A stretch of 18,782 nucleotides of DNA, taken from assembly GCA_030744755.1 (NCBI GenBank), contig JASLPY010000088.1:1-18782 (forward strand), read 5' to 3'. The stretch is from Kiritimatiellia bacterium (GTDB lineage: Bacteria > Verrucomicrobiota > Kiritimatiellia > UBA8416 > JADHWI01). The notes under the pieces were generated by a model, which did not search any database, was not told where the DNA came from, and saw nothing but the letters and a program-made list of their open reading frames with translations. Below are positions 443-18,782 of the stretch, piece by piece (position 1 is the first letter of the stretch; the number at the start of each line of letters is the position of its first letter). Position numbers and translations under genes: made by a program.

Positions 443-482
443 GTAGAACGATGCTCTGCGCCGTGTTCCGGCAACTGTGCAA

Positions 483-1104: not shown

Positions 1105-1220
1105 GGACTATTAAGCTTTGAGCTGCAAACCTGTCATTGGTTTGGGAAGAGACTGCCCGTTCCGAGTCATCATGAAGACGTGCGGTTGAAAGATCGGAGC
1201 CAAGCCTTAAGGAGGATATC

Positions 1221-1856
1221 ATGAACGAGTGGTGGGATACACTTAGTACTCTCAACAAGGCATTCTATTCAGGTGCCGGTTTCTTCAGCGTTCTCTTCAT
1301 TTGGCAGCTGCTCTCGGCTCTCATTGGCCTTGGGGGCGATGACGTTGATCTGGATGGCGATGTAGACGTGGATGTATCCGCGGATCTCGACCACGACGGT
1401 ACGTATGATGACTTCGAAGCCGGAGCCGAAGCAGATTCCGGCGAAACGATGACTTCATTCAAGCTCTTGAGCGTGCGAGCCATCATTACGTTCTTCACGC
1501 TGTTCACATGGGGTGGCGCCTTGTACATGAATGATGGCGTTCCCGCGCACAAGGCAACCGGCCTCGCACTCATATGGGGCCTGGCTGGAGGACTGATGAT
1601 TGCCGTACTTCTCAACGCGCTCAGAAAGCTTGCTGAGACGGGGAATCTCCAGCTCGCCACCAGCCTCGGAACGACGGGAACCGTCTATCTCAACATACCG
1701 GAAAACGGTACAGGCGAGGTCAAGGTTACTGTCAGCGGCGTAGTCTCACACGTAAAGGCACGTGCCAAAGAGGGCAAAGCCATCGTTGCCGGTACCCCTA
1801 TTCAAGTCGTGCGAAAGATCGGCAACAGCATACTTGAAGTCGAAGTCGTAGAGTAA
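1221..1856 (+). CDS. NfeD-like membrane protein (YqiJ family), partner of flotillin
   Basis: AAGGAGGA RBS precedes the start. There are two TM helices, an acidic DVDLDGDVDVDV linker and a C-terminal OB-fold-like region (GEVKVTVSGVVSHVKARAKEGKAIVAGTPIQVV) typical of NfeD. It lies directly upstream of the flotillin gene. Confidence 0.75.
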   Translation: MNEWWDTLSTLNKAFYSGAGFFSVLFIWQLLSALIGLGGDDVDLDGDVDVDVSADLDHDGTYDDFEAGAEADSGETMTSFKLLSVRAIITFFTLFTWGGALYMNDGVPAHKATGLALIWGLAGGLMIAVLLNALRKLAETGNLQLATSLGTTGTVYLNIPENGTGEVKVTVSGVVSHVKARAKEGKAIVAGTPIQVVRKIGNSILEVEVVE

Positions 1857-1907
1857 AACAGTTGTTCCCGGCAAGGCGCCCGGGGAAATCCAGAAAGGAG
1901 TTAGGTC

Positions 1908-3395: not shown

Positions 3396-3420
3396 TGTTA
3401 GCAGAAAAACGTTAATCAGC

Positions 3421-3458
3421 AAGGCCCCGCGGTATTATGCCGCGGGGCCTTTCCCTTC
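3421..3458 (+). terminator. Intrinsic terminator after the flotillin gene (12-bp GC stem AAGGCCCCGCGG/CCGCGGGGCCTT, 7-nt loop, then TTCCCTTCC)
   Basis: A perfect inverted repeat lies 26 nt after the stop at 3393-3395 and is followed by a pyrimidine-rich tract. Confidence 0.6.
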
Positions 3459-3469
3459 CGATCCCAGTA

Positions 3470-3492
3470 CGTCCACCGCTACGAGGTGGACG
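3470..3492. repeat. Palindromic hairpin CGTCCACC-GCTACGA-GGTGGACG; left arm of an inverted pair
   Basis: It is the exact reverse complement, loop included, of the hairpin at 3578-3600. Confidence 0.5.
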
Positions 3493-3577
3493 CATCCCGC
3501 CATTAACTCGTCAACCAGCAGAAAAAGGCATATCCTTTGGACTTCCTCTGCGAACTGGTCTGGCCAACATTGAACAT

Positions 3578-3600
3578 GGTCCACCTCGTAGCGGTGGACC
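3578..3600. repeat. Palindromic hairpin GGTCCACC-TCGTAGC-GGTGGACC; right arm of the inverted pair, abutting the stop codon of the minus-strand gene 3600..3914
   Basis: It is the reverse complement of 3470-3492, lies 85 bp away and overlaps the stop codon at 3600-3602. Confidence 0.5.
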
Positions 3601-3914
3601 TACTTACGTGAAGTGTCTGAGTGGCGGCTCCGCTTTCTCTTTATGCAGCTAATTATCTCGGCCATCGACCGGCCAGTGAGATAACACCCCAGAGCAAAAA
3701 GAGAAAAGATGAATGCCAGTAGGAGCACTACAGGACCCCAGCTGCCGAAGAAGTCAGCCATGTCCGAAAGCATTTCGCCAATCTCATCCACGCCTTCGCC
3801 AATGATCATGACTGTCGGCCAAACCAGCATCATCAGGACGAAAATGCCCGCTATTGCCCTGCAGATACTCCGCAGAATCCCTAGCTGCTTAAGTTCTCTC
3901 AGTTTCTTCCACAT
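3600..3914 (-). CDS. Small 2-TM membrane protein with a basic C-terminal tail; last gene of the PEP-CTERM operon
   Basis: It is 104 aa long. Two hydrophobic helices (IAGIFVLMMLVWPTVMIIG, VVLLLAFIFSLFALGCYL) are present. GGAG lies ~8 nt upstream of the ATG. The gene sits 76 nt downstream of the PEP-CTERM gene on the same strand. Confidence 0.45.
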   Translation of the reverse strand: MWKKLRELKQLGILRSICRAIAGIFVLMMLVWPTVMIIGEGVDEIGEMLSDMADFFGSWGPVVLLLAFIFSLFALGCYLTGRSMAEIISCIKRKRSRHSDTSRK

Positions 3915-3990
3915 GCGTAAACTCCATCTTCGGTACCCAGTCCATATGTGGGCGGCCTATCCCCATGGGCCGCTTCCCCGGTCTCGCGAC

Positions 3991-6438
3991 TCAGGCACAC
4001 CTCACATGCCTGCGTTTCAAGATCCCGCCCAGCGAAGCTACCACTCCCCCCGCAATCATCAACGCCAGTGTCCCAGGTTCGGGCACCGACATTCTTGGGG
4101 TGGAGCCTGCATCGACGGGGAGCAGGCCGGCCTCGTCGTATTGCTGTTGCGTTTCCAGTACCACGGCTCCGGTCACCGGCGTAACAAGCTGGTAGAGGCT
4201 TGCCAGGGCGACAGCATTCGTGACGTCTGCCGTACTGCCGGAACCCGCCATTCTCAAGACTTCTCCATTCGCCCACAGACGCGCCAGGTGGTCCGAAGCA
4301 TGCTCCGCCAAGTCCTCATCACCTTGAGGCTCGTGCCTTGAACGCACGTACTGCAGCGGGATCTTCTCGCCCGTCAACTGACCTAGAAATCCGCGCAGGT
4401 CGGCTTCGACATCGCCGAATACAGGAACCGGCCTCAGGAACCCCTTCTTCTCAAGTGCACGCGATATCACATTGGGACCGGCTTCGAATTGAAGATCGTA
4501 GATGGTGGGCGAATGCCGACCTAGTTTGTCTGTGGCCGAATCCAACGCTGCAAGCTCAACGGGTTGGGGAGCGTGCAACCAGATTATGGCGCAGTCTGGA
4601 ATCCCGCTCGCGAGCTCCACGGCACGGATGAGCGCCGGTACGCTGTCGCGACCTCCCTCGAAAGTGGAAGCAGCCAGATTATGCCTCAGTTCAAGCGCGG
4701 TCTTTTCTCCGGCATCCGTCAAAGGGTACAGCTCGACGACATCGTCACTTGCCAGCAAGACATACATCTCCCTGTCAGCAGGGACACTTGCTATCGCCTC
4801 GGCAATGAGCTCTCCGTGCCGGCCCATCCTTCTTGATCCGTCTATGACGAAGATGAATGATTTAACGGTGGCGACTTGTTTGCCGAGGATGCGTTGACGG
4901 ATTATGAGCCCTTCGTTACCGTGCATGTCTTCGGTCCATGCCAGGTCTCTGTCACGGTTTCTCCCGAACGAGATACTCAGGGGACTCGTGATGTGAGCCT
5001 GTTCCAGGTTACCCCGCACAGTGTGCGGGTCCAGTTCGGAAAGCGTAGGTGGCGTGCCGATTTGACAGACGATGCCCCGAATTGCGGTCGCGGAATGCAG
5101 GGAGAGCTCGGGTGCAGCCTGCGGCGCTATGTTGAAATTGCGCTCGACGAACTGGGGGATGCGCAGCATCCCCTCCGATTTTGATTCAAGCGACAATGGC
5201 GCTGTGATGCCAAGTCTAACCTGCATTTCTCCACCGCCAGGAGGGACTGGGAAGCACTGCACCATGACCAGGTCACTGCCTTTGCTGGTGACAAGGACCG
5301 GATCCCGCCGCCGGCGCACGACTTTCTGGTAGGCGGCCTTCACAGAGCCGGTTCCGCTGAAGGCCGCTTCGCGTTCCTCACCGTCGATCCAGAGCGTCAG
5401 GCGCGAGACTACTCCTCCGGGCGGCAACAGGACCTGTGAACGGGCTTCCCGTTGCAGCGCCGAGTCGTTTCTGAACCGCAGGGTCCATTCCGTGTAGCTG
5501 GTTCCACAGTCGGCATCAACGGAGCTTTCGGTACGCGATTCAACCAGTGAGAGCCCGCGTATTCGTGCTGCGACCGCGTCCCCGCCCTGGTCGAAATCAA
5601 CGTCGTTCTGGGTGACCGCAGACCCCAGCGTTCCCCCGCGGATACTCCTGATCGCCGGGGCCTTCACGGCATTGTAGGGTGTTCCGGTCACGCGGTAATA
5701 GACTTCGCGGGCATTTTGGGGACGGATTTCTTCCATCGCACCTGGCAATACCAAGTCCACAAAGTTCGAACAGGCTTCAAGAAGTACTGCAGGGGACAGG
5801 GGCCGGTTCACGCTGTAACAGAACCTGAGCAGGTGGTCTTCCTCAACATAGTCCCGAAGGAGTCGTATGCCCTGTGTCCGGGTATCCCTTTTGCAGGCCA
5901 TCTTGATTCCCGCGAACGCAAGAACTGTGGGCGCGGCAAGAAGGCACAGCGCCAGGCTTGCGGCGAGCAGGGGAATCCATATGCGAGGCAACAAAAGTCC
6001 CGTTTCCTTCTCGAACATCTGCCGCAACTTAACCCTTAAGCGCAGCCCCGTCACCAGGGTAATGAAAGGTGTAAGGGGCAATAGACCCAGCCCAAAGGCG
6101 GGAAGGGCCATGACGGCGAAGGGAGCTATGGGAAGAAACGCTATGGCGTAACATGCAGATACACCCACGGCGGCCCCGTTTATCAGTCCGACTCCCTTCG
6201 CGTGGCGATAGTCCGATGAGCGAATCGCAACATACGCGGCCAGGTTGGCGATTGGGACAACGGATAAGAGCAATGCGTGCCAGATCGAAGGCACGGGATC
6301 AAACGACAGGCAGGCGCAGAAGCCGCTTACGATTTCGAACAGAAGCGTGAACGTTGGCAGAATGACGCCGAAGACCAGAGCGAAAACACCTACGGCCGGC
6401 CGTGCTTTTTGGAGAATACTTGTGGATTCGGGATTCAT
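3991..6438 (-). CDS. PEP-CTERM-anchored protein with an N-terminal polytopic membrane domain, a VIT domain and a vWA domain
   Basis: The real start is ATG 6438 (MNPESTS...), which overlaps the upstream stop as TAATG. There are ~6-7 N-terminal TM segments. A VIT-like region (VLLPPGGVVSRLTLWIDGEERE...) and a vWA fold (VKSFIFVIDGSRRMGRHGELIAEAI..., MIDAS degenerate DGSRR instead of DxSxS) follow. The C-terminus VPEPGTLALMIAGGVVASLGGILKRRHVRCA is a classic PEP-CTERM (PEP motif, TM helix, Arg-rich tail). Confidence 0.85.
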   Translation of the reverse strand: MNPESTSILQKARPAVGVFALVFGVILPTFTLLFEIVSGFCACLSFDPVPSIWHALLLSVVPIANLAAYVAIRSSDYRHAKGVGLINGAAVGVSACYAIAFLPIAPFAVMALPAFGLGLLPLTPFITLVTGLRLRVKLRQMFEKETGLLLPRIWIPLLAASLALCLLAAPTVLAFAGIKMACKRDTRTQGIRLLRDYVEEDHLLRFCYSVNRPLSPAVLLEACSNFVDLVLPGAMEEIRPQNAREVYYRVTGTPYNAVKAPAIRSIRGGTLGSAVTQNDVDFDQGGDAVAARIRGLSLVESRTESSVDADCGTSYTEWTLRFRNDSALQREARSQVLLPPGGVVSRLTLWIDGEEREAAFSGTGSVKAAYQKVVRRRRDPVLVTSKGSDLVMVQCFPVPPGGGEMQVRLGITAPLSLESKSEGMLRIPQFVERNFNIAPQAAPELSLHSATAIRGIVCQIGTPPTLSELDPHTVRGNLEQAHITSPLSISFGRNRDRDLAWTEDMHGNEGLIIRQRILGKQVATVKSFIFVIDGSRRMGRHGELIAEAIASVPADREMYVLLASDDVVELYPLTDAGEKTALELRHNLAASTFEGGRDSVPALIRAVELASGIPDCAIIWLHAPQPVELAALDSATDKLGRHSPTIYDLQFEAGPNVISRALEKKGFLRPVPVFGDVEADLRGFLGQLTGEKIPLQYVRSRHEPQGDEDLAEHASDHLARLWANGEVLRMAGSGSTADVTNAVALASLYQLVTPVTGAVVLETQQQYDEAGLLPVDAGSTPRMSVPEPGTLALMIAGGVVASLGGILKRRHVRCA

Positions 6439-7208
6439 TATTGCTTGCTCCGGATTTCGTTTGCCCTGCCACGATTCTGCTGCTTGCGCATGGAGTCTCC
6501 TAAATGTGCCAGGAAAAACTTCTTCTCGGGGTCGCGCCACCCCGCGTCACTGATGGTCAGTAATGGCCGCATGGTTGTGGCCATTTGGAGCGAGACCACA
6601 ATGTAGATGATGAGCCACCACTCGGATCCCGAGAGACCCTTCTGTGGATCTACCGCGCCAAGAATCCGGAAGATCCTGGAACAGAAACTCACCGAGATCG
6701 CCCATGCGGTTACGTTCATGAGAACGACAAACCGGAGACTGCTGGTGGAAACGCTGAACAGCCAGGAAATGGGGGTCAACCCAATGAGCAGCAACCCGGT
6801 CATGGCAACGGTTGCGCTTCCAAGGGCCAGTGTCTGGGTTAGAGATACAGTTCTGCCTGCCACGCACGAGAACACGTACAGGCTGGGCATGCATAACAGG
6901 ATAGAACAGAGCGAGATGATCGGAGCCTTGCATGCCGTTACCAGCGCCACCTGGGACGATGTGAAGAGCGCCATGGCAAATCCGTATGCAGCATGAAAAA
7001 GCAAACCCCAGAACAGCAACTGCAGGGCCAGTCCCGGAAGCGAATCGTCTTCGTTAATACGGCGTACCAGGCTTGCAGGCGTTTTAAGCAGCCCTGTTAT
7101 GGCGTTGTTTATGGGGATATCATCCATGACTTGAGAGGCCTCCCTCCCGGGCAAACCCCTTGCAGGGGGTACCCGCGCGTCGTTTTCGGCGTTATTGTTA
7201 TGTGTCAT
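6438..7208 (-). CDS. Polytopic membrane protein (5-6 TM), unknown function; possibly Yip1-like
   Basis: The ORF track extends to 7601, but the ATG at 7208 (MTHNNNAEN...) has GGAGGAGGTGG immediately upstream. It overlaps the upstream gene's TGA as ATGA and its own TAA overlaps the next ATG. A ~60-aa soluble N-terminus is followed by five or six hydrophobic helices. Confidence 0.6.
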   Translation of the reverse strand: MTHNNNAENDARVPPARGLPGREASQVMDDIPINNAITGLLKTPASLVRRINEDDSLPGLALQLLFWGLLFHAAYGFAMALFTSSQVALVTACKAPIISLCSILLCMPSLYVFSCVAGRTVSLTQTLALGSATVAMTGLLLIGLTPISWLFSVSTSSLRFVVLMNVTAWAISVSFCSRIFRILGAVDPQKGLSGSEWWLIIYIVVSLQMATTMRPLLTISDAGWRDPEKKFFLAHLGDSMRKQQNRGRANEIRSKQ

Positions 7209-7915
7209 CCACCTCCTCCTTTCATTACGTATGGCAGAACATCGATAAGAACGAACTCGAAGAAGTTGTGGTCGAGGGCGTTGGGACGCATGAACTCCAC
7301 CTCGAAGAATGGGCTCCCAACGAACGGCCGGAGAATCCACGAAAGCTGGCAGCCAACGAGAGCAAATGCGGCTATCCAGCCCCAGTAAATCGCGGTTGCC
7401 GGGCAGGTGGGTGCAACTACTTCGCCCAGTCCACGTCGAAGAGCCGAGTTCCCTGCAACTCCCGCGAAGGCGATCAGGAGAATGTGCATGAGAAGCAGGT
7501 AGTTGTGGGTCAGACGTTGCTCGGCCATGGTGCCTTCGCAGGAGGCGACCCCGTAGGTGAAGAACAGCGTAATCGGTACGAGGCTCAGCAGTACCCAGCA
7601 AGCAATGCCCATGGCGCTATAGGTAACGGCAACAACCTGCCTGAAAGTCATGCCGCTTGTCGCCACGGTCGCAACAATCCAGTTGAGCAGCATCACCAGG
7701 GTTGTCGTTCCAATAAGAAGTGCCGGAAGTTTGACCGCGACATACAACGAAAGCCGGGGGGAGCGCCAGCCGGCGAGAACGATTCCATAAAGAGAGCTTG
7801 CGGCGATTATGAAAACAAAAAGGGACACCACAAGACGGCCGATCTGTTTCTCCGAACAGATTCTCCGCCACAGCAGTGAATGCGAACGAAGTAGAATCAT
7901 AGGTGAGTCAATCAC
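7205..7915 (-). CDS. Polytopic membrane protein (6+ TM), unknown function; first gene of the PEP-CTERM operon
   Basis: The start is GTG at 7915 (AAGGGAG ~10 nt upstream) or ATG at 7900. It is hydrophobic throughout. Cys126 and the NSALRR region are of the kind conserved in exosortases but are not a match. Confidence 0.55.
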   Translation of the reverse strand: MIDSPMILLRSHSLLWRRICSEKQIGRLVVSLFVFIIAASSLYGIVLAGWRSPRLSLYVAVKLPALLIGTTTLVMLLNWIVATVATSGMTFRQVVAVTYSAMGIACWVLLSLVPITLFFTYGVASCEGTMAEQRLTHNYLLLMHILLIAFAGVAGNSALRRGLGEVVAPTCPATAIYWGWIAAFALVGCQLSWILRPFVGSPFFEVEFMRPNALDHNFFEFVLIDVLPYVMKGGGG

Positions 7916-8021
7916 GCGAACGATCTCCCTTTACCCATGTACATAAAGATCCGTGGGGGAAAGTTACAAAAAAAGAACGGGGTGTGAGTATGTGCTCCCT
8001 GTACCCCCTGTTGTCTTGGAC

Positions 8022-8081
8022 GGCGGAGGCCCGCCGCGCTCCACGCTGGCGCACTCTTCTGGAGCGCGGCGGGCCTCCGCC
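8022..8081. promoter_or_regulatory. Perfect 22-bp-stem hairpin (GGCGGAGGCCCGCCGCGCTCCA / TGGAGCGCGGCGGGCCTCCGCC, 16-nt loop) in the divergent intergenic region and 5' leader of the ECF sigma gene
   Basis: The perfect inverted repeat is read directly. It lies ~70 bp upstream of the most likely sigma start and inside the over-extended ORF 7953..8924. Confidence 0.5.
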
Positions 8082-8153
8082 GCATCTCAGCTGGAAGAAT
8101 GCTCGAGAGCCGCCCTCTTGAAGCCGAACACGCTATCTGCAATAATCGGGACC

Positions 8154-8924
8154 GTGAACGACTCGACAGACAGAGGTGCGCATTTTGACGGGCCAGGCGC
8201 TTTCGCAGGCACCCGGTGGAGTGTTGTCGTCAAGGCGCGTTCGAAAGATTTGAGTATAGCCCGGAAAGCTCTTTCGGAGCTCTGCTCGATCTACTGGTAC
8301 CCCCTCTACGCTTTCGCGCGGCGGAGCGGTTGCAATCACCATGAAGCCGAGGACATAACCCAGGGACTTTTTCTTCACCTGATAAGCAAAGACGGGTTGA
8401 GTTCCGTGGATCCTCGAAAGGGCAAGTTCCGATCGTTCCTGCTGATTGCCATGAAGCATTTCATGGCCAACGAGTGGCATCGTTCGCAAGCCCAGAAACG
8501 CGGCGGCGGAAAGACGATTGTGTCTATCGATATGGGTGAGGGAGAAGGGCGCTATGAAAGCGAACCCGTTGATGCCGTGACGCCGGAGTCCCTCTACGAC
8601 CGGGGGTGGGCAATGACTGTGCTGCAGACATGCGTAGATGACTTGGAAGAAGAGTATTGTGCAAAAGGGAAACGAGAAGCCTTCAATCTTCTCAAGGGCA
8701 GGATTATTGAAGAAACACGTTCCGAACCATATTCCGTGCTGGCTGAGAAGCTGAACATGACCGAGGGGAATGTGAAGGTATCAATCCATCGGCTCCGCAG
8801 GCGGTTCGGGGAAATCCTTCGCGATCATGTTGCGCAAACGGTTGAATCGGCAGCGGATGTTGATGAAGAATTGAGATACCTGATATCCTGTTTCGGTGGT
8901 GGTGTGGAGAATACTGCTGGGTAG
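8154..8924 (+). CDS. ECF-type RNA polymerase sigma factor of the Ser/Thr-kinase-associated group (TRWS N-terminal motif)
   Basis: The ORF opens at GTG 7953, but the conserved N-terminus (GTRWSVVVKARSKD...) lies ~20 aa after the in-frame GTG at 8154 (alternatively TTG 8118). Sigma region 2 (LYAFARRSGCNHHEAEDITQGLF) and region 4 (PYSVLAEKLNMTEGNVKVSIHRLRRRF) are present. A kinase gene lies immediately downstream. Confidence 0.75.
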   Translation: MNDSTDRGAHFDGPGAFAGTRWSVVVKARSKDLSIARKALSELCSIYWYPLYAFARRSGCNHHEAEDITQGLFLHLISKDGLSSVDPRKGKFRSFLLIAMKHFMANEWHRSQAQKRGGGKTIVSIDMGEGEGRYESEPVDAVTPESLYDRGWAMTVLQTCVDDLEEEYCAKGKREAFNLLKGRIIEETRSEPYSVLAEKLNMTEGNVKVSIHRLRRRFGEILRDHVAQTVESAADVDEELRYLISCFGGGVENTAG

Positions 8925-8998
8925 AGTACAGAATCTCCAGGTCTGTTAGGCCCGGGCTCAAGGCGAAAGGATTCAGTAAGAGACTGAGTAGAGAGCTT

Positions 8999-9077
8999 GT
9001 CATCCTGAGCGAAGCGGAGCGTAGTCGAAGGATCTAAGCCGTGTGATAGGCCGTGAGATCCCTCGACAGGCTCGGGA
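8999..9077 (+). promoter_or_regulatory. Long imperfect nested hairpin in the kinase 5' leader (GTCATCCTGAGC...GCTCGGGATGAC outer stem; GTCGAAGGATC...GATCCCTCGAC inner stem)
   Basis: Nested inverted repeats are read from the sequence ~90 bp upstream of ATG 9169. Confidence 0.3.
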
Positions 9078-9168
9078 TGACATTAACTAGACATTGTCTG
9101 AAGGAAACGCATGGGATACGGTGACCCTTCGCGGTGATGATCTAGAACGGGAGCGTTGATTAGACAGC

Positions 9169-11295
9169 ATGCCCACCGAACGCACATGTGACGAATGCGG
9201 CAGTGTCGTGCCGGACAGTGCTCCCATGGGGTTGTGCCCGCAGTGCCTTCTAGGGTGCGGGTTGGGCGCGCAGGATCGGTCTACGACTGGTGGTTTCGAG
9301 ACTCCCAGCCTTTCTGTTATGCGGGAACGCTTTCCCGGGTATGAGATCCTGGAGCTCCTGGGACGTGGCGGGATGGGTATTGTCTACAAGGCTCGGCAGT
9401 CGAGGCTGGAACGTCTTGTCGCTATCAAGATCATACCCTTCAAAAAGGACATGGATGTAGAGGCGTCAGAACGATTCCTGCGCGAGGCCAAGACTCTTGC
9501 CAGTCTCAATCATCCCAACATCATCACCGTCTACGATTTCGGTGAAATTGACGGCCTGTGCTACTTCGTTATGGAGTTCGTTGAAGGATGCAACCTGTGG
9601 GAGCTTCTCTCTGCCCGGTCCATCAGCCCATACGACGCCATGAACATAACGTTGGGAGTCTGCAATGGACTGCAACACGCTCACGATCGAGGCGTTGTTC
9701 ACCGGGACATCAAGCCGGCGAATATCCTCATCGACAAATCGGGTGTCCCCAAAATCGCGGATTTCGGATTAGCCAAGATTCTTGCCTGCGCTCCGGGCGC
9801 ACCGTTGCTTACGGCATCGGGACAATCCATGGGAACCCCATTCTACATGGCGCCAGAACAGCGTGACCAGTCCGTTGAGGTCGATCAGCGGGCGGACGTT
9901 TACGCGCTCGGAGTAATAATGTACGAAATGCTCACGGCCCAACTGCCTGCCGGGAACGTGAAGCCACCGTCGACCCTGGCGCAGGTGCCGCGCGGCCTGG
10001 ACCATGTTGTACTCAAGGCAATGGAGCCCAATCCAGACCACCGCTACCAGCGGGCGGATGGAATTGTGTCCGACATCGAGGCACTTGCGTCCGCGGGTGT
10101 CATTCCGGGAACCGGGGGACGGAAGCCGTCCCGCTTCAGCCCGGTCATATTGACCGTCATAGTTTCAGCGGCTGTTCTCGCCGCGTTGTTCGGCGGTGCG
10201 CGCTTTCTCTCAAAGGAACCTCCTCCCCAAGACGTGATCGTCTTCGGCAACCATTTCTACAAAGTGTTCTATGAAAACACGACATGGCACGATGCGCGAA
10301 GGCGATGCGAAAGGATGGGGGGGCGCCTGGCGATCGTCGAGAGCAAGGCCGAAGACGAATTCCTCGCGGCAATATCCCGGAGCCACGTCTGGATTGGGGC
10401 CACGGATGAGGACGAAGAGGGACAATGGAAATGGCTGGATGGATCGGAACTGGCGTATTCTAACTGGGATGCCGACGAGCCGAACAACGCTCCGGGCCGT
10501 GCTGCCGGAACGTACGAAGACTACCTGATGATCTCGAAATATGCGAAATGGAATGATCTGTCGCTTGACTCGGAGATCATCAAGGGTTTCATATGCGAGT
10601 GGGACGCATCAAGCCATCCGGGGCCTGCGAGGGTAAGAACTCCTGAACAGCTCCACAAGGCCTTCGCGGAAGCCAACCCTTACTACAGCAACAAGGCCGG
10701 GATCTCGGTTGTCGATGGAAACATCGTCGGTGTCAGCATTGTTCACGCCGGTGTTGTCGACTTGTCTCCGCTTCGGGGACTCTCCCTGCGCACGGCCGAC
10801 ATAAGCTGGTCGGATGTAACCGACCTGTCCCCGATCGAGAATGCTCCACTCTCCGAGCTGAAGATGAGCCGGAGCAAAGTCACGGATTTGTCGGCACTTG
10901 CCGGCATGCAACTCGTGTCTTTGAGAATTGACGGAACAGGGGTGCATGATCTTATCCCGCTTAAAGGGATGCCACTGACTTACCTGGATATCAGTCATAC
11001 CAGGGTTACTGATCTCAGCCCGCTCGCCGGAATGCCGCTGAAAGAACTGCATATGAATTGCGCCAGAGTTTCCGATCTATCTCCAGTGAGCGGTCTGCCG
11101 CTCACCAAGATAGGGTTGCTGGACAGCCCCGCCGGGGACCTGTCTCCTCTGGGTGAATGCAAACTCCTGGAATCGGCGAATGTCCCGGAAAACGCCACGG
11201 GTATCGAGTGCCTCAGGGAGCTGCCGCTGCTGGAACGGTTAAACGGGAAAACGGTTGAGGAGTTCTGGAAAGAATGGGAAGAGCGCGCTGAATAG
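9169..11295 (+). CDS. Transmembrane Ser/Thr protein kinase with an N-terminal Cys4 zinc-ribbon, extracellular C-type lectin domain and leucine-rich repeats
   Basis: Zinc ribbon: CDECG...CPQC. Hanks kinase motifs: GRGGMGIVYKA, VAIKII, HRDIKPANILID, DFGLAK, YMAPE. TM helix: VILTVIVSAAVLAALFGGA. C-type lectin domain: WHDARRRCERMGGRLAIVES...WIGATDEDEEGQWKWLDGSEL..DEPNN...WNDLSL..CEW, carrying EPN and WND sugar/Ca2+-site motifs. At least six ~22-aa LRRs follow (xVTDLSPLxGMPL...). Confidence 0.9.
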   Translation: MPTERTCDECGSVVPDSAPMGLCPQCLLGCGLGAQDRSTTGGFETPSLSVMRERFPGYEILELLGRGGMGIVYKARQSRLERLVAIKIIPFKKDMDVEASERFLREAKTLASLNHPNIITVYDFGEIDGLCYFVMEFVEGCNLWELLSARSISPYDAMNITLGVCNGLQHAHDRGVVHRDIKPANILIDKSGVPKIADFGLAKILACAPGAPLLTASGQSMGTPFYMAPEQRDQSVEVDQRADVYALGVIMYEMLTAQLPAGNVKPPSTLAQVPRGLDHVVLKAMEPNPDHRYQRADGIVSDIEALASAGVIPGTGGRKPSRFSPVILTVIVSAAVLAALFGGARFLSKEPPPQDVIVFGNHFYKVFYENTTWHDARRRCERMGGRLAIVESKAEDEFLAAISRSHVWIGATDEDEEGQWKWLDGSELAYSNWDADEPNNAPGRAAGTYEDYLMISKYAKWNDLSLDSEIIKGFICEWDASSHPGPARVRTPEQLHKAFAEANPYYSNKAGISVVDGNIVGVSIVHAGVVDLSPLRGLSLRTADISWSDVTDLSPIENAPLSELKMSRSKVTDLSALAGMQLVSLRIDGTGVHDLIPLKGMPLTYLDISHTRVTDLSPLAGMPLKELHMNCARVSDLSPVSGLPLTKIGLLDSPAGDLSPLGECKLLESANVPENATGIECLRELPLLERLNGKTVEEFWKEWEERAE

Positions 11296-11402
11296 CACCC
11301 TGGGTGCAGGAAAAGGCCTCAGAGCCATCTGCGTTGTGAAACAGATCAACGGGGGCAGGGTGAAACGGGGGCACGAGGTTTTGTTTACCCCACAGCATAA
11401 GG

Positions 11403-11533
11403 GGTTAGGCGCTAGGTGTTAGTAGCTAGGATTCTGGGACAGCGCAAATCGACCCCACCGTTTTGAGTGGGATACGAGGCCGGCATCGCTACGCGCACGG
11501 CGGACCTTTCCCGCTAACGCCTAGCGCCTAACC
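11403..11533. repeat. MITE-like segment bounded by ~21-bp inverted repeats (GGTTAGGCGCTAGGTGTTAG / CTAACGCCTAGCGCCTAACC)
   Basis: The IR arms (11403-11423 and 11513-11533) match at ~20 of 21 positions. A ~90 bp interior separates them and extra GGTTAG/CTAACC half-sites are present. The region is non-coding. Confidence 0.4.
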
Positions 11534-11543
11534 ACTAACCACT

Positions 11544-11570
11544 GCGTTCTGCGCTCACAGCGCAGAACGC
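11544..11570 (+). terminator. Perfect 12-bp stem hairpin GCGTTCTGCGCT-CAC-AGCGCAGAACGC followed by a TCAGTTTTCAGTTTG tract
   Basis: It is read directly. It may terminate an upstream transcript or an sRNA lying within 11300-11575. Confidence 0.45.
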
Positions 11571-11587
11571 TCACCTCAGTTTTCAGT

Positions 11588-11616
11588 TTGACACAATCTT
11601 AGACAAGTGCCACAAT
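11588..11616 (+). promoter_or_regulatory. Candidate promoter TTGACA, 17 nt, CACAAT upstream of gene 11720
   Basis: A perfect -35 hexamer with 17-nt spacing is paired with a weak -10. It lies ~100 bp upstream of the start codon. Confidence 0.3.
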
Positions 11617-11719
11617 AGCCATGTTGGCAAAGGCGCTATTGCCATTGGTATGGTATCCCTGATTCATCGGTATTGCTGGTGTTTAGCAACACGTCTTGCA
11701 ATTCGTAAGGAGGGGTACC

Positions 11720-12826
11720 ATGAACAAGCTGTTCACATTCCTCGCCGCGGTCACGCTCGTTCTCGCGAGCACGGCCCTGGCCCTTGGTATTCTCCTGTTC
11801 GAGAAGCGTGAGATCCTTAAAGGCCGCGCCCAGAAGCTCGAACAGACGATTATCCAACTCGGAGCTACTATCGAGGCAGAAAGTGTTGTTCTCGATGAGA
11901 AGCCTGTCTATCCCGAGCGCGATGTCGATGATGTCTCGGATCACCTCATAGAAGACCCCGCGATGGGCGAGTATTGGGAGACGTTCTCTCCCGAGCTGGA
12001 GGTGGGATCCACGGAGACCCTTGACATCGGCCGTAAGCAGGATCAACTCATGACCTACTACATGAGAGATCCCGGCACACTCAAGCCACTGGTTGACCCC
12101 CGTACCGGCATGAAGGTTACAGAGGGTCCGGGTACCATGCAGGAAGTACTCGATGTTGTCGTCTCGAAATCGGCGGAGCAGCTTGACCGCCTCAACGATA
12201 CCCGCGCACAGCTCATCGATATGCGGGGGGAACTCGTAGGTACCATTACTGGTCTTAACAGAACGAAGAACGATCTGCGCCAGGCCTATGTCGACATAAG
12301 TGCTCGCAACAGCACCATTGCCGGACTAAACGAAGATGTCCGTCAGCGTGATGAAACGATAGGAGAGTGCAAGAAGGAGATGATTGCCCTCAACGACACA
12401 ATCCATGAACGTGACATCATAATCGAGGATAAGGATGGTGAGCTCTTCAGACTGAAGAAGGACAATGAGGCCCAGGAAGACAGGATCGCCTTCCTGGAGG
12501 GCCGGGGCAAGGGGGTGGATCCCAACACGTGGTTTGGCCTGACCAGGGGTTACAAGGGGAATGTTGCATCGGTGGATGAGCACTGGCAGTTCGTCGTATT
12601 GCAATTGACGGACGAGTTTCTTGCGCAGTACAGGTATGCCCTGGAGAAGGGTAAGATCATTCCTGAGCCGGATCTGTACGTGGGGCGCAAGAAGAATGGT
12701 GACGAGGAGTTCGTAACGAAGGTTCGCCTAAGCCACGTTGACCCCAACAAGAGGCTCGGCGTAGCCAATGTTCTGAGTGGCTGGCGGCAATTGAACGTCC
12801 GCAAAGGTGACCGGGTCTACTATTGA
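11720..12826 (+). CDS. Membrane-anchored coiled-coil protein, function unknown
   Basis: The start is ATG 11720 (TAAGGAGGGG RBS); the ORF track opens at an upstream TTG. It has a signal-anchor (LFTFLAAVTLVLASTALALGILLF) and a long heptad-like region (RNSTIAGLNEDVRQRDETIGECKKEMIALNDTIHERD...). Confidence 0.7.
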   Translation: MNKLFTFLAAVTLVLASTALALGILLFEKREILKGRAQKLEQTIIQLGATIEAESVVLDEKPVYPERDVDDVSDHLIEDPAMGEYWETFSPELEVGSTETLDIGRKQDQLMTYYMRDPGTLKPLVDPRTGMKVTEGPGTMQEVLDVVVSKSAEQLDRLNDTRAQLIDMRGELVGTITGLNRTKNDLRQAYVDISARNSTIAGLNEDVRQRDETIGECKKEMIALNDTIHERDIIIEDKDGELFRLKKDNEAQEDRIAFLEGRGKGVDPNTWFGLTRGYKGNVASVDEHWQFVVLQLTDEFLAQYRYALEKGKIIPEPDLYVGRKKNGDEEFVTKVRLSHVDPNKRLGVANVLSGWRQLNVRKGDRVYY

Positions 12827-12883
12827 GTTGAGGTAGCAATCCACATCGCGGATTCCATCTGTTGGAGTTGGTGGTATTCCTTT

Positions 12884-12933
12884 GGAGGGACGCGGGCCTC
12901 CGCGTCCGGGGTCACGGAGGCCCGTGACCCTCC
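12884..12933. terminator. Compound GC-rich twin hairpin (GGACGCGG-GCCT-CCGCGTCC and GGGTCACGG-AGGC-CCGTGACCC nested in GGAGG...CCTCC) between convergent genes; likely a bidirectional terminator
   Basis: It is read directly. It lies between the stop at 12824-12826 (+) and the stop at 12983-12985 (-). Confidence 0.55.
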
Positions 12934-12982
12934 ATCCAATGGATTTGCATTCAGCTTACGGTAAACCTGGTGCCTCTTCCGG

Positions 12983-13579
12983 CTATGCATCAATTTTCAG
13001 TATCATGCCTATACACAGTGCGGATGCCATCAGGAGTTGGCGTGTTGTTCCGCCGGGGGGGACCGCTTCGTCAATCTCCAGTACGTAATCCGAGCCGCTT
13101 GCGAAGAGTTCTTTTCCCACGCCTGCCCATTTTTTTCGCACACGCGCAAGCTCCACCTCGTCGGGTGACAGAAAGCGGTAGTTCCACCCTGTGAGTCCTC
13201 CCTTGAGTTCGCAGACGGGTTCACCCGTGGCATCAAGTACGTCGAATATACCGCTGATTGAGAAAGGCCTCAGGGAGAATCCCCCAACAGCTATGTCGCT
13301 CTCGTCGTAGACGTGAACCCGGGATACCATGAAAGAGAGTCCTCGTTTTAACCTGATGACCGGCTCGCCCTGGGCATCGGCGACAAGGAAGTCAAAAGGT
13401 GTTATCCTGCGCAGATCGGAGAACCGGAAGAACTTTGTCAGGGGGCCGATGTGTTGCTCGCGACATGTCATCAGGACGTCACCTGTTTCGGGATCGAGTA
13501 TGTCGTAGCTGAAAGATGCCTTTATAAGGCTTGTCGTTTCACGCACGAAGTACCGGTTTTTGTCCAGGACACCTTTCAT
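12983..13579 (-). CDS. Scramblase / LURP1-like tubby-fold protein with a C-terminal hydrophobic helix
   Basis: It is 198 aa with a predicted beta-rich body and a terminal hydrophobic segment (LLMASALCIGMILKI), as in the PLSCR/PF03803-PF04525 families. RBS: AAGGAAGAAATTCT-ATG. Confidence 0.45.
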   Translation of the reverse strand: MKGVLDKNRYFVRETTSLIKASFSYDILDPETGDVLMTCREQHIGPLTKFFRFSDLRRITPFDFLVADAQGEPVIRLKRGLSFMVSRVHVYDESDIAVGGFSLRPFSISGIFDVLDATGEPVCELKGGLTGWNYRFLSPDEVELARVRKKWAGVGKELFASGSDYVLEIDEAVPPGGTTRQLLMASALCIGMILKIDA

Positions 13580-13609
13580 AGAATTTCTTCCTTTTCTTTC
13601 AGGAACCTT

Positions 13610-13643
13610 TTCAACCGTGGATTACGCGGATACAGATTGTTGC
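13610..13643. repeat. Copy 2 of the repeated motif (TTCAACCGTGGATTACGCGGATACAGATTGTTGC)
   Basis: See 401-442. A tandem TCTGATAG(A/T)AAC direct repeat sits nearby at 13693-13716. Confidence 0.45.
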
Positions 13644-13716
13644 TGCACAGCAGACTTTCCTATACCCGTGCCCGTCCGCGGTTAATCCCTATTCTGATAG
13701 AACTTCTGATAGTAAC

Positions 13717-14556
13717 TCACTTCCCGAAAAAACGTTTTCTCACGCTGATTCTTATGCTGCGAGGCAGGCCACGCTCCTCCGTGATTCTGTTGAAAATCTT
13801 CATTGCCTGAATTCGTGTGATGCTCACGTCGAACATATCGGCAAGAAGTCGCTTGGCCACTTCGGAGGCGTACTCGTCAAACGCCTCCCGGCTTCGCTTC
13901 AGTTCACGCGCTGCCGCCATCTTAAGCTGGTTGGCTTTCTCTCCTGTCCGTCCATCACCCGGTGAAGACGACTTCGTATCCCCAACTTCATCTTTCAGTT
14001 TCCGCCGCTGATCTTCCTTGGCTGCAGAAAGACGTGCTTCCAGGGCTGCCGCGCTGGTTCTCTTGGCTGCCGCCAGTTTCTCGTCGAACACCGGCGGGAG
14101 AACAATGGTGCCGGGTTTGCGCAGGGGAGTGGTGGTTTCTGGTTCTTGCGCCGCTTCTTCTCCGGCGATCCTCTCGAGGGCTTCAAGGGAGACGGGTTGT
14201 CCGTGTTTCAACCTGTGGCCTACCACCGCCGGGGTTTCCATTCGTTTGCGCAGGTCGCCGAGTGTTTCTATAAACGCGTTTTTGACGATTCTCCTGGGTT
14301 CTCCGGGTCCACGCTCACCGAGGATCTCGATATCCCCGTCATCGATCCAGTTCTGAATCGCTCTGCGCGTGGCCCCGAGCATTCGTGCGGCTTCGCTGAC
14401 GGACAGCGTTCGGAGGTTGTCGGCGGCCTCGGCCTCGAGGTAGCCCCGGTCGAACAGCCAGTGGCCGGCTTCGGACTTCATTGCCCACGGAGGAGGGGTT
14501 CCGTTGTGCTCCCTGGCGTATAGATATGCACGCTGCACGTAGGCGCCGGGTTTCAA
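13717..14556 (-). CDS. HTH (excisionase/MerR-like HTH_17) DNA-binding protein, otherwise uncharacterised
   Basis: The helix-turn-helix is LSVSEAARMLGATRRAIQNWIDDGDIEI. The start is TTG at 14556 with AGAAGG upstream. An internal ATG at residue 26 is an alternative start. Confidence 0.55.
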   Translation of the reverse strand: MKPGAYVQRAYLYAREHNGTPPPWAMKSEAGHWLFDRGYLEAEAADNLRTLSVSEAARMLGATRRAIQNWIDDGDIEILGERGPGEPRRIVKNAFIETLGDLRKRMETPAVVGHRLKHGQPVSLEALERIAGEEAAQEPETTTPLRKPGTIVLPPVFDEKLAAAKRTSAAALEARLSAAKEDQRRKLKDEVGDTKSSSPGDGRTGEKANQLKMAAARELKRSREAFDEYASEVAKRLLADMFDVSITRIQAMKIFNRITEERGLPRSIRISVRKRFFGK

Positions 14557-14655
14557 TGCGCCTTCTATTGCCTCTACGTCACGGCTTTCCAGCCAGTGAC
14601 GTTCGGGCGAGCCAGGACTGGAGCCCTTATTGCTGATGGTCTGGCCTCGGGTTTC

Positions 14656-14931
14656 TCAGTCAAACGTGTAGTGCTTGCGAACGTCACCCAGGATCTTCCA
14701 TGTACATCTCATTCCCACCGGAAAGACAACCAGGTCACCTTTTCCCATGGAAACGGGTTCTCCGCCCTCCGGGGTAACCTCCACCTCACCGTCCAGGAAA
14801 TAGCATGTCTCCTGGGATGAATAGGACCATGGAAACTCAGATACCTCCTTGGTCCAGATGGGCCAACCCATCACTCCCAGCTCCGACAGCTTCTCATCAC
14901 TCGGGTTCTTGTCGACATCTATTTCACTCAT
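14656..14931 (-). CDS. Small cupin-fold protein (DUF861/Cupin_3-like)
   Basis: It is 91 aa. GGAGG lies 7 nt upstream of the ATG. The pattern GWPIWTKE...CYFLDGEVEVTPEGGEP...GDLVVFPVGMRCTWKI is characteristic of the single-domain cupin_3 family. It sits 17 nt downstream of the TerB-like gene. Confidence 0.75.
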   Translation of the reverse strand: MSEIDVDKNPSDEKLSELGVMGWPIWTKEVSEFPWSYSSQETCYFLDGEVEVTPEGGEPVSMGKGDLVVFPVGMRCTWKILGDVRKHYTFD

Positions 14932-14948
14932 AGAGGAGCCTCCCCGTG

Positions 14949-16364
14949 CTATGTGTATCTGGAAACTTCAGGTGACTCAGCCAGCAGACGATGATTCAAC
15001 GGGCCGGTGCCGCTGTTCTTGACGGCCCGCCTTATTATCTTGAGCCCTCCCTGGATGCCGGAAGGGATGACACCGTCCACCAGCCTGCTGTCTGTGTATG
15101 AGCAACCATGAACAGTCTTGCGGATGTTCCTGGCCACCGAACCGAATCCCTGCGTCTTGACCTCGCGAAACCGCCACCGTCCCCATACCTTGACCTTGTC
15201 GGGCATGGCTTCCATGGCGGATTCAATGTAGTTCAGCTTCAAGAACGGGCATAGGCGATAGGGCTGAAGGTTTTCCTCCAGTTTCCTTATCATCTGGTCT
15301 TTGTCGAAGACAAAAACATCTTCCGACTTGAACGCTCCGCACGTGAACCATTCGCCGGATGACGACCAGTTCATGTCCGCCTTACGGCAGCCCCAGGTGT
15401 TAAGTTCGTCTGCACCAAGGCCAAAGCAGTATTCCGCCGGATGCTCCGACATCGCCCTTGCCCTTGCGCATGCGCAGAAACCAAAAACGCTTCCCCATGC
15501 GGTCTCAACCCCGTTTATGTAGAGGCGCCTCTTAGGTAGTTGAGAAACGGCCATGGCTGTTCTTGCAAGCTCGGCGACGGAATCGACCAGCCAGACTCCG
15601 TAATGCCATTTCTCTCCGCGCAACTCGTACTCACCCGATTCGTCGGCTGATTCGAATGCCTTAAGCTCACGCTTCAGAAAAAGAGATAGCGATGAGCAGA
15701 ATTCGATCGTGATACCCTCGTCCGGTGGCGTAAATTTCTTCTCCGGCGCAGCGGGCACGGGTGGAGGGGCTTCCCGCTCGGGTCGCAGGACCTCTTTCTT
15801 CTCAACGACCGCAGGTGCCGGAGTTGGCTTCGGTTTCTTCCTGGACGCCGACTTGGGTCTGGCGAGCGCCCTTGCCCTTGGAGGCTTCTGCGTCCTGGTT
15901 ACTTCTTTTGATCTAGTGCGCCGCGCGGTGGCCCTCGCGGGTGTGGCTTTCTTCCTCCTTTTTGGCTGACCACTGGATTTTGGTACGGGCGCGTCTTTCA
16001 CGATTTTCCGGAGCCGGGATTGTGCCTTCTTGACCATCATGTCCATGTCGGCCTGGACATAGCCGAGAACATCAGTCATTTTCTCTATGGGTTTGATCTC
16101 CGAGCTATCCAGCTTGCCGTCGGACAGCGCCACCATTATCATGTCTTCTATGTTCGCACTTCGCTGGCTTGGCGTTCCCAGGGGCTTGAGCTTGTAGTCG
16201 CCCGACGCAAGAAGGCGCGTGGCATCCTCAACGACAGAAGCATCGGCTTCAATGCGGCTGATGATCCATCGAATCGCCAGTTTCTCCTGGAGCGCAACGA
16301 CATCATCGGCGCCGGCAATGGTGAGAACATTGGCGAGATAAACAACTTTCTCGGCTCTGTTCAT
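14949..16364 (-). CDS. TerB-domain protein with a Lys/Arg/Pro-rich basic linker and an unassigned Cys/Trp-rich C-terminal domain
   Basis: GGAAGGAG RBS precedes the start. The N-terminal ~120 aa match the TerB pattern (MIMVALSDGKLDSSEIKPIEKMTDVLG). Residues ~125-200 are KP-rich (PKRRKKATPARATARRTRSK...RKKPKPTPAP). The C-terminal ~270 aa (WHYGVWLVDS...FGFCACARARAMSEHPAEYCFGLGADELNTWGCRKADMNWSSSGEWFTCGAF...) are not recognised. Confidence 0.65.
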   Translation of the reverse strand: MNRAEKVVYLANVLTIAGADDVVALQEKLAIRWIISRIEADASVVEDATRLLASGDYKLKPLGTPSQRSANIEDMIMVALSDGKLDSSEIKPIEKMTDVLGYVQADMDMMVKKAQSRLRKIVKDAPVPKSSGQPKRRKKATPARATARRTRSKEVTRTQKPPRARALARPKSASRKKPKPTPAPAVVEKKEVLRPEREAPPPVPAAPEKKFTPPDEGITIEFCSSLSLFLKRELKAFESADESGEYELRGEKWHYGVWLVDSVAELARTAMAVSQLPKRRLYINGVETAWGSVFGFCACARARAMSEHPAEYCFGLGADELNTWGCRKADMNWSSSGEWFTCGAFKSEDVFVFDKDQMIRKLEENLQPYRLCPFLKLNYIESAMEAMPDKVKVWGRWRFREVKTQGFGSVARNIRKTVHGCSYTDSRLVDGVIPSGIQGGLKIIRRAVKNSGTGPLNHRLLAESPEVSRYT

Positions 16365-16673
16365 TGGTTAACTCCTTCCCAGGCATCAGGACAGAATTCG
16401 CTTAAGCGTTACAATCTTAGCCAACCCCGACCTCAATAGCCAACGATAATAGTTGTCAGTATTGTGCAAACCCAACGCCGTTTCGGCCATTACAATCGTT
16501 GATTCTGTTTGTAATAAAGGAATTCGACCCGTTCCCCCCGCAGCTCCCGACAAGACGGTTCGGAGCGTAGAGTGACTACGGACACCGATGGACGTGACGT
16601 TTTGCAGAAGTTGGGAGGGTCCGCGGCCTCGCGGACCGTGCACAATGATCGCGAGACTTTAGTGCAATCCCAA

Positions 16674-18674: not shown

Positions 18675-18782
18675 GCTGTGCTCAGTTCGAGGATTTACCG
18701 CAGTTATGTGGAGTGCGGGATTATGTTGAGTAGATACCGTAAGTCTCTGTGAATGAAGACACAGGGCTAAGAACTACTTAAC

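Follow-up and report, generated by a model that had tools for sequence, protein, structure and literature searches.

Sigma factors of the extracytoplasmic function (ECF) group ECF43 are directly activated by an adjacent receptor kinase, as demonstrated by experiment for EcfP with PknT and for EcfK with PknS, and this activation relies on the replacement of the acidic DAED/DxxD motif of sigma region 2.2 (sigma2.2) by a phospho-acceptor Thr (PMC8999054, PMC13147305). Plants have lectin receptor-like kinases (LecRLKs) of the C-type, one or two per genome (PMC7293193). Hardly any of the signals read by receptor Ser/Thr kinases and kinase-linked ECF sigma factors are known for Planctomycetes, Verrucomicrobia and Kiritimatiellae. 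Here, we analyzed 18,782 nucleotides from a Kiritimatiellia bacterium (GCA_030744755.1, contig JASLPY010000088.1, positions 1 to 18,782 of the forward strand), a stretch referred to below as the window, and in particular one of its genes, which encodes a single-pass receptor Ser/Thr kinase whose ectodomain joins a C-type lectin domain (CTLD) to leucine-rich repeats (LRRs). We consider it fairly probable that this protein is an inner-membrane receptor kinase that uses an EPN-type CTLD and LRRs as a glycan sensor and acts through the adjacent sigma factor on a divergent operon. The original prediction concerned positions 10240-11295, i.e., residues 358-708 and the stop codon of the open reading frame (ORF) 9169-11295 (plus strand), and proposed that a lectin domain of the Ca2+/mannose type is followed there by LRRs, as in a lectin receptor kinase.

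The lectin domain is a genuine PF00059 CTLD with an intact EPN-type principal site, and binding of Ca2+ and sugar is predicted from its sequence. The profile search suggested along with the original prediction, which a failure of that search would have refuted, gave a Lectin_C match far above threshold (60.5 bits against a gathering cut-off of 22.6, E 3e-16) over residues 370-477, spanning profile positions 2-106 of 107. Searches against the PDB with phmmer retrieved SRCL/CL-P1 (E 5e-19), mannose-binding protein A (MBP-A, ~1e-15) and DC-SIGN (~1e-13). The half of the domain that runs from WIGxTD to EPN (WIGATDEDEEGQWKWLDGS...YSNW...EPNN) aligns ungapped to CL-P1 and MBP-A, and the strings that had been quoted as lectin hallmarks (WIGATDEDEEGQWKWLDGS...YSNW, DEPNN and AKWNDLSL) are all found at the expected codons. 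In a residue-level alignment with human MBP, the EPN tripeptide, E450-D451 and WND fall on the MBP ligand positions; therefore, none of the five side chains that act as ligands in the principal site (E437, N439, E450, N462 and D463) is missing. A Ca2+ ligand beyond EPN and WND, on which the original prediction had made its own fate depend, is thus accounted for by E450, which aligns with the Glu of the MBP segment 'sdEDC' and is invariant in 17 orthologues. The cysteines of the C1-C4 disulfide, which connects helix alpha1 with strand beta5, are C380 (10306-10308) and C476 (10594-10596); they are also present and invariant in orthologues. The auxiliary-site residues of the window protein are D413, E417, N440 and D451, which we take to be equivalent to D161, E165, D188 and D194 of MBP-A, assuming the customary numbering of that protein together with the ungapped alignments. 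Between EPN and E450, the loop has five residues more than its MBP counterpart, and its length equals that of the ASGPR-type loop grafted into galactose-binding QPD mutants of MBP-A (1afa).

Structure prediction was carried out twice with AlphaFold (AF2): on the whole ectodomain with 18 sequences, and on the CTLD alone with a 63-sequence alignment that included bacterial CTLDs. The second model reached a predicted local distance difference test (pLDDT) score of 94.3 and a predicted TM-score (pTM) of 0.88, with no segment below 50, and adopts the double-loop alpha/beta fold with a long-loop region. A superposition on carbohydrate-recognition domains (CRDs) had been proposed as a check, and the CTLD model does match sugar-binding CRDs: Foldseek against the PDB returned TM-scores of 0.8-0.88 and root-mean-square deviations (rmsd) of 1.7-2.2 Å to CRDs of the sugar type. 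SRCL is among them (TM-score 0.81-0.88, rmsd 1.7-2.2 Å, 34% identity), and CD23, ASGR1/2, SP-D, CL-K1, MGL and Endo180 CRD2 are further top matches. The geometry of the Ca2+ site is a prediction supported at the level of alignment and modeled fold.

The site is also kept in evolution. Among 5.8 billion proteins, we found 17 clusters of full-length orthologues, 48-85% identical, all of which combine kinase, Lectin_C and LRRs. Residues C380, W408, E437, P438, E450, W461, N462, D463, C476, E477 and W478 are invariant in all 17. Within the CTLD, variability peaks at positions 442-449; three orthologues (P0014-16) have a shorter loop between EPN and E450, by five residues, and D451 varies among Asp, Asn and His. 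The CTLD, the LRRs and the kinase have mean column entropies of 1.03, 1.09 and 1.12, respectively, against 2.29 for the juxtamembrane and transmembrane segment; thus, purifying selection on the ectodomain is at least as strong as on the catalytic domain. To judge from these alignments, selection is strongest on the sugar-ligating residues and not on the structural auxiliary Ca2+ site. The kinase protein itself is 100% identical to an NCBI protein from a metagenome-assembled genome (MAG) labeled only 'protein kinase [Kiritimatiellia bacterium]', and one NCBI metagenome protein bears the name 'Serine/threonine protein kinase // C-type lectin'. A scan of 185,579 species representatives with two peptide patterns, which is not a census, returned one full-length kinase orthologue (a Lentisphaerae MAG) and 34 non-kinase CTLD proteins.

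The remainder of the protein has the layout expected of a receptor. Its Hanks-type domain matches the Pkinase profile over residues 58-274 with 179 bits, and the catalytic motifs GRGGMG, VAIK, HRDIKPAN, DFG and APE are complete, at residues 65, 84, 178, 198 and 228, with the HRD, DFG and APE residues invariant among orthologues. Its best profile matches are bacterial Ser/Thr kinase models; among those of NCBIfam, the model for PASTA kinases comes first with 273 bits, a score under the cut-off of that model. The N-terminal CxxC-N13-CxxC motif is kept in orthologues as well (pattern C.xCG...AP.G.CP.CLL). There is one strongly hydrophobic segment, in agreement with the single transmembrane helix of the original prediction, and it is preceded by the stretch RKPSR, a positive-inside flank; therefore, an N-in topology can be deduced, with the kinase in the cytoplasm and the C-terminal 360 residues outside it. 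An active-type Hanks kinase and a zinc ribbon are accordingly predicted to be cytoplasmic, with the C-terminal ectodomain towards the periplasm or cell envelope.

The LRRs are genuine tandem repeats of the LxxLxLxxN/x type and form a capped solenoid of seven units, which probably follows the CTLD rigidly. Motifs of the DLSPL type recur at residues 531, 552, 573, 594, 615, 636 and 657 with a strict 21-residue period, which sharpens the earlier count of at least six repeats to exactly seven. The LRR profile search that had been suggested gave a match to LRR_4 just above its cut-off (27.7 against 27 bits) and matches of NCBIfam internalin models to residues 511-663. In the model of the whole ectodomain, the solenoid has pLDDT > 90, and it superposes on InlA with an rmsd of 1.4-1.5 Å across ~171 columns and also on InlF, InlC2 and a Roco LRR (1.4-2 Å, InlA included). 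The C-terminal cap holds a conserved CL..LP.L..LN motif, and the linker with the N-terminal cap (residues 481-520) is less conserved than the domains on either side.

A homology search with the whole ectodomain was dominated by LRR proteins, and an exhaustive search of representatives with the CTLD alone was used instead. The latter matched 32,228 of 1.84 billion cluster representatives at E <= 1e-3. The closest bacterial CTLDs are 38-47% identical and belong to proteins with two or three CTLDs plus dockerin, Big_2, Listeria-Bacteroides repeats, amidase or ricin domains. Among 480 near-full-length CTLDs from the collected proteins, EPN is present in 260 and WND in 284, and 271 have neither C2 nor C3; 71 domains of 45 proteins combine a full EPN/E/WND set with the absence of the second disulfide. 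By pattern scan, such CTLDs occur in Akkermansiaceae, Lentisphaerae, Planctomycetota, Pirellulales and Kiritimatiellae, and also in many rumen and gut Clostridia, Butyrivibrio and Fredinandcohnia. Since this subtype is common to many bacterial proteins, the lectin domain can be assigned, by its sequence features, to an established bacterial single-disulfide CTLD subtype, and a bacterial PF00059 domain is not in itself very unusual.

What is rare is the combination of a kinase, a canonical CTLD and LRRs, which is confined to a small clade of the Planctomycetes-Verrucomicrobia-Chlamydiae (PVC) superphylum. Among the 174 CTLD proteins collected, a single CTLD with the canonical site is joined to both LRRs and a kinase in this family only, and the canonical site is kept in only the 17 orthologues among 21 proteins with both kinase and CTLD. 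P0319 (Pkinase, three CTLDs and FKBP), which is among the closest matches to the window CTLD, has QPN with WVD, WWD and WSD in place of EPN and WND, and the site of P0056, another kinase-CTLD fusion, is degenerate. More generally, P0319, P0031, P0048 and P0056 are Hanks kinases with one to three CTLDs plus FKBP or FGE-sulfatase and a degenerate EPN/WND, from which it follows that the fusion of kinase and CTLD arose or diversified more than once. Relatives of the kinase domain carry FGE-sulfatase, WD40, TPR, PEGA, Big_5 or unannotated ectodomains, and the protein fits a known PVC theme of one kinase and sigma chassis with interchangeable sensor domains. We found no published bacterial C-type lectin kinase of such architecture in a literature search of incomplete coverage; the architecture is visible in precomputed Pfam annotations.

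The gene order around the kinase is conserved in six independent loci, namely the window and those labeled L001, L002/L003, L004, L005 and L006. In all six, a sigma factor gene lies directly upstream of the kinase gene, its products being 239-263 residues long and 50-58% identical to that of the window ORF 7953-8924. The window sigma factor matches TIGR02937 with 46 bits (cut-off 42.9) and also Sigma70_r2. Its true start is likely the GTG at 8154, to judge from the alignment of the orthologues; the mechanical start at 7953 adds ~67 unsupported residues. A CAATAAT/GATAAT-like box lies ~7 nt before the probable start in all six loci (window 8120-8160), and its position suggests that it is a -10 element directly next to the start codon, in which case the transcript would be leaderless. 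No gene resembling an anti-sigma factor was found in the six loci, and the sigma factors resemble the kinase-linked PVC groups ECF59-62 and ECF217.

On the other strand, two membrane proteins and a surface protein with a VIT domain are encoded divergently. The two membrane proteins are distant paralogues (23% identical) with no match to any Pfam or NCBIfam family, and may be a new family tied to the signaling module. Their conservation across loci (identities of up to 68%) exceeds that of the kinase, and they are always found beside the pair of sigma factor and kinase. The VIT-domain protein follows in most loci, including L002 and L005; in L004 and L005, its membrane part and its VIT part are separate genes. 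In the window, this protein has a multi-pass membrane region at its N-terminus, matches VIT with 42.6 bits (PF08487) and, at its C-terminus, PEP-CTERM with 24.1 bits (TIGR02595, cut-off 16), and is similar to VIT proteins of XrtN systems. The GTG start of its ORF overlaps the upstream gene by ~100 nt, so its real start is probably a Met near 6438.

Upstream of the first divergent gene, by ~25-55 nt and on its strand, TGTAAC is present in six of six loci, and the exact string TGTAACC-N15-TGTTGTA in four of them; equivalents of the window motif lie in L001, L004, L005 and L006. This non-coding motif is conserved although the proteins of the loci are just ~50-68% identical. By its sequence, it looks like the -35/-10 pair of an ECF-type promoter and is a candidate target of the sigma factor; alternatively, it may be an imperfect inverted-repeat operator. 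The kinase gene is thus one member of a conserved module of five genes that has a candidate promoter.

Between the sigma factor and kinase genes, the window carries a near-perfect palindromic hairpin with arms TGTCATCCTGAGC / GCTCGGGATGACA (13-nt arms; RNA minimum free energy -43.7 kcal/mol, z -4.98). No Rfam family matches it or anything else in the window. Exact copies of a 24-nt arm of the hairpin are present in metagenomes of peat, soil and sediment, on at least 120 contigs; therefore, the hairpin looks like a widespread palindromic insertion similar to a miniature inverted-repeat transposable element or a repetitive extragenic palindrome. In the orthologous loci, the sigma factor and kinase genes abut or overlap, and the hairpin is absent. 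Other genes of the window seem unrelated to the module: in 1908-3395 (+), 12983-13579 (-), 14949-16364 (-) and 16674-18674 (-), they encode a SPFH/Band-7 protein, a scramblase-like protein, a TerB-domain protein and a right-handed beta-helix protein, respectively. The coordinates of all features of the module are collected in Table 1.

Table 1. Features of the kinase gene and its module, in window coordinates (aa, residues of the respective protein).
Feature	Position	Strand	Details and basis
Divergent gene 3: VIT surface protein with PEP-CTERM signal	3991..6540	-	849 aa; true start probably near 6438
Divergent gene 2: membrane protein	6438..7190	-	~250 aa; 39-58% identical in other loci
Divergent gene 1: polytopic membrane protein	7205..7915	-	236 aa; 44-68% identical in 6 loci
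Candidate ECF-type promoter of the divergent operon	7940..7968	-	TGTAAC (7968-7963), N16, TTATGTA (7946-7940)
ECF-type sigma factor gene	8154..8924	+	256 aa from the likely GTG start at 8154; mechanical ORF start 7953
Palindromic hairpin between sigma factor and kinase genes	8998..9082	+	85 nt; outside the conserved module
Whole kinase gene	9169..11295	+	708-aa single-pass receptor Ser/Thr kinase with CTLD and LRR ectodomain; ORF list and translation
Zinc-ribbon-like motif CxxC...CxxC, aa 7-27	9187..9249	+	CDECGSVVPDSAPMGLCPQCL
Hanks-type kinase domain, aa 58-310	9340..10098	+	Predicted cytoplasmic; Pkinase PF00069, motifs
Single transmembrane helix, aa 323-345	10135..10203	+	Sole strongly hydrophobic 19-mer, Kyte-Doolittle 2.46
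C-type lectin domain, aa 355-480	10231..10608	+	Long-form, single disulfide; PF00059, AF2, Foldseek
EPN tripeptide, E437-P438-N439	10477..10485	+	Two principal Ca2+/sugar-site ligands; aligns with human MBP EPN
Variable loop between EPN and E450, N440-Y449	10486..10515	+	Column variability, MBP alignment
E450-D451	10516..10521	+	E450 third principal-site ligand, D451 auxiliary site; aligns with E-D of MBP 'sdEDC'
WND, W461-N462-D463	10549..10557	+	Last two principal-site ligands; aligns with MBP WND
Linker and LRR N-terminal cap, aa 481-520	10609..10728	+	Helix 143-153, then hairpin (ectodomain model)
Seven internalin-like LRRs of 21 residues, aa 521-677	10729..11199	+	Register, pLDDT > 90
LRR C-terminal cap, aa 678-708, and stop codon	11200..11295	+	Helical cap in model

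We hypothesize that a Ca2+ ion held by E437, N439, E450, N462 and D463 would ligate two adjacent equatorial hydroxyls of a sugar, for which mannose-, N-acetylglucosamine (GlcNAc)-, glucose- or fucose-type residues are the candidates. In collectins, fucose, mannose, glucose and GlcNAc are all ligands of EPN sites. Specificity, or the binding of a partner, could come from the variable loop 440-449 and from the LRR surface. Clustering upon ligand binding would alter the autophosphorylation of the kinase, which would act on the co-transcribed ECF-type sigma factor (8154-8924), and this in turn would drive, via TGTAAC-N16-TGTTGTA, the divergent operon of two membrane proteins and the VIT/PEP-CTERM surface protein. 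We infer the step from kinase to sigma factor from synteny and from the precedent of other kinase-sigma pairs, and the glycan and the regulon are predictions in the same way as the binding of Ca2+ and sugar. Cultured Kiritimatiellae are anaerobic saccharolytic specialists on fucose-rich sulfated algal polysaccharides (PMC5148204, bioRxiv 10.1101/2023.06.09.544357). Since an inner-membrane kinase of a diderm has its ectodomain in the periplasm, the sensed glycan need not come from outside. A more detailed version, in which the EPN-type CTLD of the kinase binds fucose-, mannose- or GlcNAc-containing glycans in the periplasm in a Ca2+-dependent manner, signals to the sigma factor by a mechanism other than that of ECF43 and has the operon of the VIT adhesin as its output, is possible and is put forward here tentatively.

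Several observations weigh against a glycan sensor acting through the sigma factor. The first AF2 model, made with 18 sequences, placed the Ca2+ loop at pLDDT < 50. The C2-C3 disulfide, which runs from strand beta3 to the loop after beta4 in canonical CTLDs and stabilizes the long loop of animal CRDs, is missing, with Y452 and L466 on the positions of those MBP cysteines; the original prediction, which had spoken of all hallmark positions, holds for EPN, E450, WND and the C1-C4 cysteines and was overstated with respect to this second disulfide. Two of the 17 orthologues have EPS instead of EPN (N439 replaced by Ser), and the auxiliary Ca2+ positions D413, E417 and D451 are replaced in several. 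Many CTLDs bind proteins, CD23, a top structural match, being an example. The neighboring genes encode envelope proteins and not carbohydrate-utilization functions, and at the window locus the hairpin separates the sigma factor and kinase genes (245-nt gap). A literature search of incomplete coverage found no biochemical data on any bacterial PF00059 domain. Finally, the acidic sigma2.2 motif is retained in all six sigma factors, as HH(E/A)AEDLTQG or HHEAEDITQG; therefore, they are not ECF43-like, and the known ECF43 activation logic does not transfer. A phospho-switch sigma factor of the ECF43 type was thus rejected, the acidic EAED being kept and not replaced by a phospho-acceptor Thr.

Instead of a foreign glycan, the lectin domain could watch the envelope of its own cell, with the GlcNAc of peptidoglycan, exopolysaccharide or lipid-linked intermediates, or a glycosylated PEP-CTERM (VIT) protein as ligand, as an assembly checkpoint like that of the PASTA kinases. 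The conserved partners are genes for membrane proteins and for a surface protein sorted by an exosortase rather than for carbohydrate-active enzymes, and the ectodomain of an inner-membrane protein is periplasmic in a diderm; therefore, envelope self-monitoring is a serious rival, and the acceptance of GlcNAc by collectin EPN sites would agree with it. We nevertheless regard it as doubtful, as no genes of peptidoglycan or exopolysaccharide biosynthesis are conserved beside the module, and the data do not distinguish self from foreign glycan.

The sugar site might, on the other hand, have nothing to do with sugar: the ectodomain would then be a protein-binding module, through its LRRs and perhaps its CTLD, and the Ca2+ site would be kept just for loop stability. 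LRRs of the internalin type, to which the matches with InlA and InlB point, bind proteins, and CD23 binds the protein IgE. In addition, EPN and WND were lost in other kinase-CTLD fusions (P0319, P0056); therefore, CTLDs on such kinases need not bind sugar. The conservation pattern, however, makes this possibility improbable: the sugar-ligating residues are kept in the 17 orthologues (with the Ser at N439 in two of them) while the auxiliary site drifts, which is the pattern expected for selection on ligand contact. Last, contamination with eukaryotic DNA, a chimeric assembly or a lectin exon acquired very recently from an animal would account for the fact that all solved structural and sequence neighbors are animal proteins, but has next to no probability and is effectively refuted by the recurrence of the architecture, with bacterial flanking genes, in different samples and on at least six independent contigs, by a guanine-cytosine content that is uniform over the gene and its neighbors (0.55-0.57) and by the single-disulfide subtype, which is common to bacterial proteins with dockerin, Big_2 and Listeria-Bacteroides repeats. 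The protein was also considered as the variable target of a diversity-generating retroelement, a reading rejected on account of finding no direct repeat of at least 30 nt in 8900-11400 and no reverse transcriptase domain among the window ORFs scanned.

A glycan sensor in a bacterium, set beside a sigma factor, is plausible from sequence and rare. The chemistry of its sensor domain is among the best understood in glycobiology: the predicted ligand class consists of sugars with equatorial 3- and 4-hydroxyls, and a specificity-switch mutation, EPN to QPD, is known for the CTLD site. A predictable ligand class, together with a compact five-gene module and a candidate promoter, makes the pathway from kinase to sigma factor experimentally tractable. 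If true, the glycan-sensing proposal would provide the first ligand class for any sigma-coupled receptor kinase of the PVC superphylum and an independent, convergent case of lectin receptor kinase signaling outside plants and animals. Moreover, canonical PF00059 domains with intact sugar sites are a widespread single-disulfide bacterial subtype, which bears on the common view that the recognition of carbohydrates by C-type domains arose in Metazoa. As far as sequence, fold, conservation and synteny go, the original prediction is confirmed in what it described and supported in how it was read. The missing disulfide, the bacterial subtype, the unconserved auxiliary site, the hypervariable loop, the five-gene module and the non-ECF43 character of the sigma factor are additions to the original prediction.

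Comparison with known systems places each part of the protein in a different context. Animal CRDs (MBP-A/MBL, SRCL/CL-P1, CD23, SP-D and DC-SIGN) belong to the same Pfam family and share the long-form fold, the WIGxTD, EPN, E-D and WND positions and the C1-C4 disulfide. The window CTLD differs from them in having no C2-C3 disulfide and a loop five residues longer after EPN; it is also bacterial, monomeric in its context, devoid of a collagen or neck region and joined to LRRs and a transmembrane kinase. Closer in subtype are the bacterial multi-CTLD proteins (those of Clostridia with dockerin, Big_2 and Flg_new, and those of PVC bacteria), which have the same single disulfide and often the full EPN/E/WND set, at 38-47% identity; unlike the window protein, they are secreted or cell-surface proteins with two to seven tandem CTLDs and no kinase. 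The internalins of Listeria (InlA, InlF and InlC2) have a similar capped solenoid of short repeats (rmsd ~1.5 Å, ~30% identity), with a period of 22 residues against 21 in the window protein, which has neither the Ig-like inter-repeat domain nor an LPXTG or GW anchor.

As for whole receptors, the plant C-type LecRLKs combine, as here, a Lectin_C ectodomain, a single transmembrane helix and a Ser/Thr kinase in one polypeptide. In plants, however, the lectin occupies the N-terminal part and a kinase of the RLK/Pelle type the C-terminal part, whereas the window protein shows the opposite order, with a Hanks kinase of the bacterial type and a zinc ribbon; the plant proteins also have no LRRs after the lectin and no sigma factor output. 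Owing to its reversed order and bacterial kinase, the window protein is not a member of the plant family, and the resemblance to plant lectin receptor kinases drawn in the original prediction holds for domain content only, as a convergent analogy. The PASTA kinases (PknB, PrkC and StkP) are analogous in being single-pass Hanks receptors that recognize a glycan-containing ligand, the muropeptides, but the window kinase has no PASTA repeats, is predicted to recognize its ligand through a Ca2+-dependent CTLD and resides in a diderm PVC host. The pairs of receptor kinase and ECF sigma factor (PknT-EcfP of Vibrio and PknS-EcfK of Xanthomonas in ECF43; ECF59-62 and ECF217 in PVC bacteria) have in common with our locus a transmembrane Hanks kinase adjoining an ECF sigma factor, the absence of an anti-sigma factor and a variable sensor. 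In ECF43, Ser or Thr residues replace the acidic sigma2.2 motif, whereas the window sigma factor keeps HHEAEDLTQG; and where PknS carries a TPR sensor, the window kinase carries a CTLD and LRRs.

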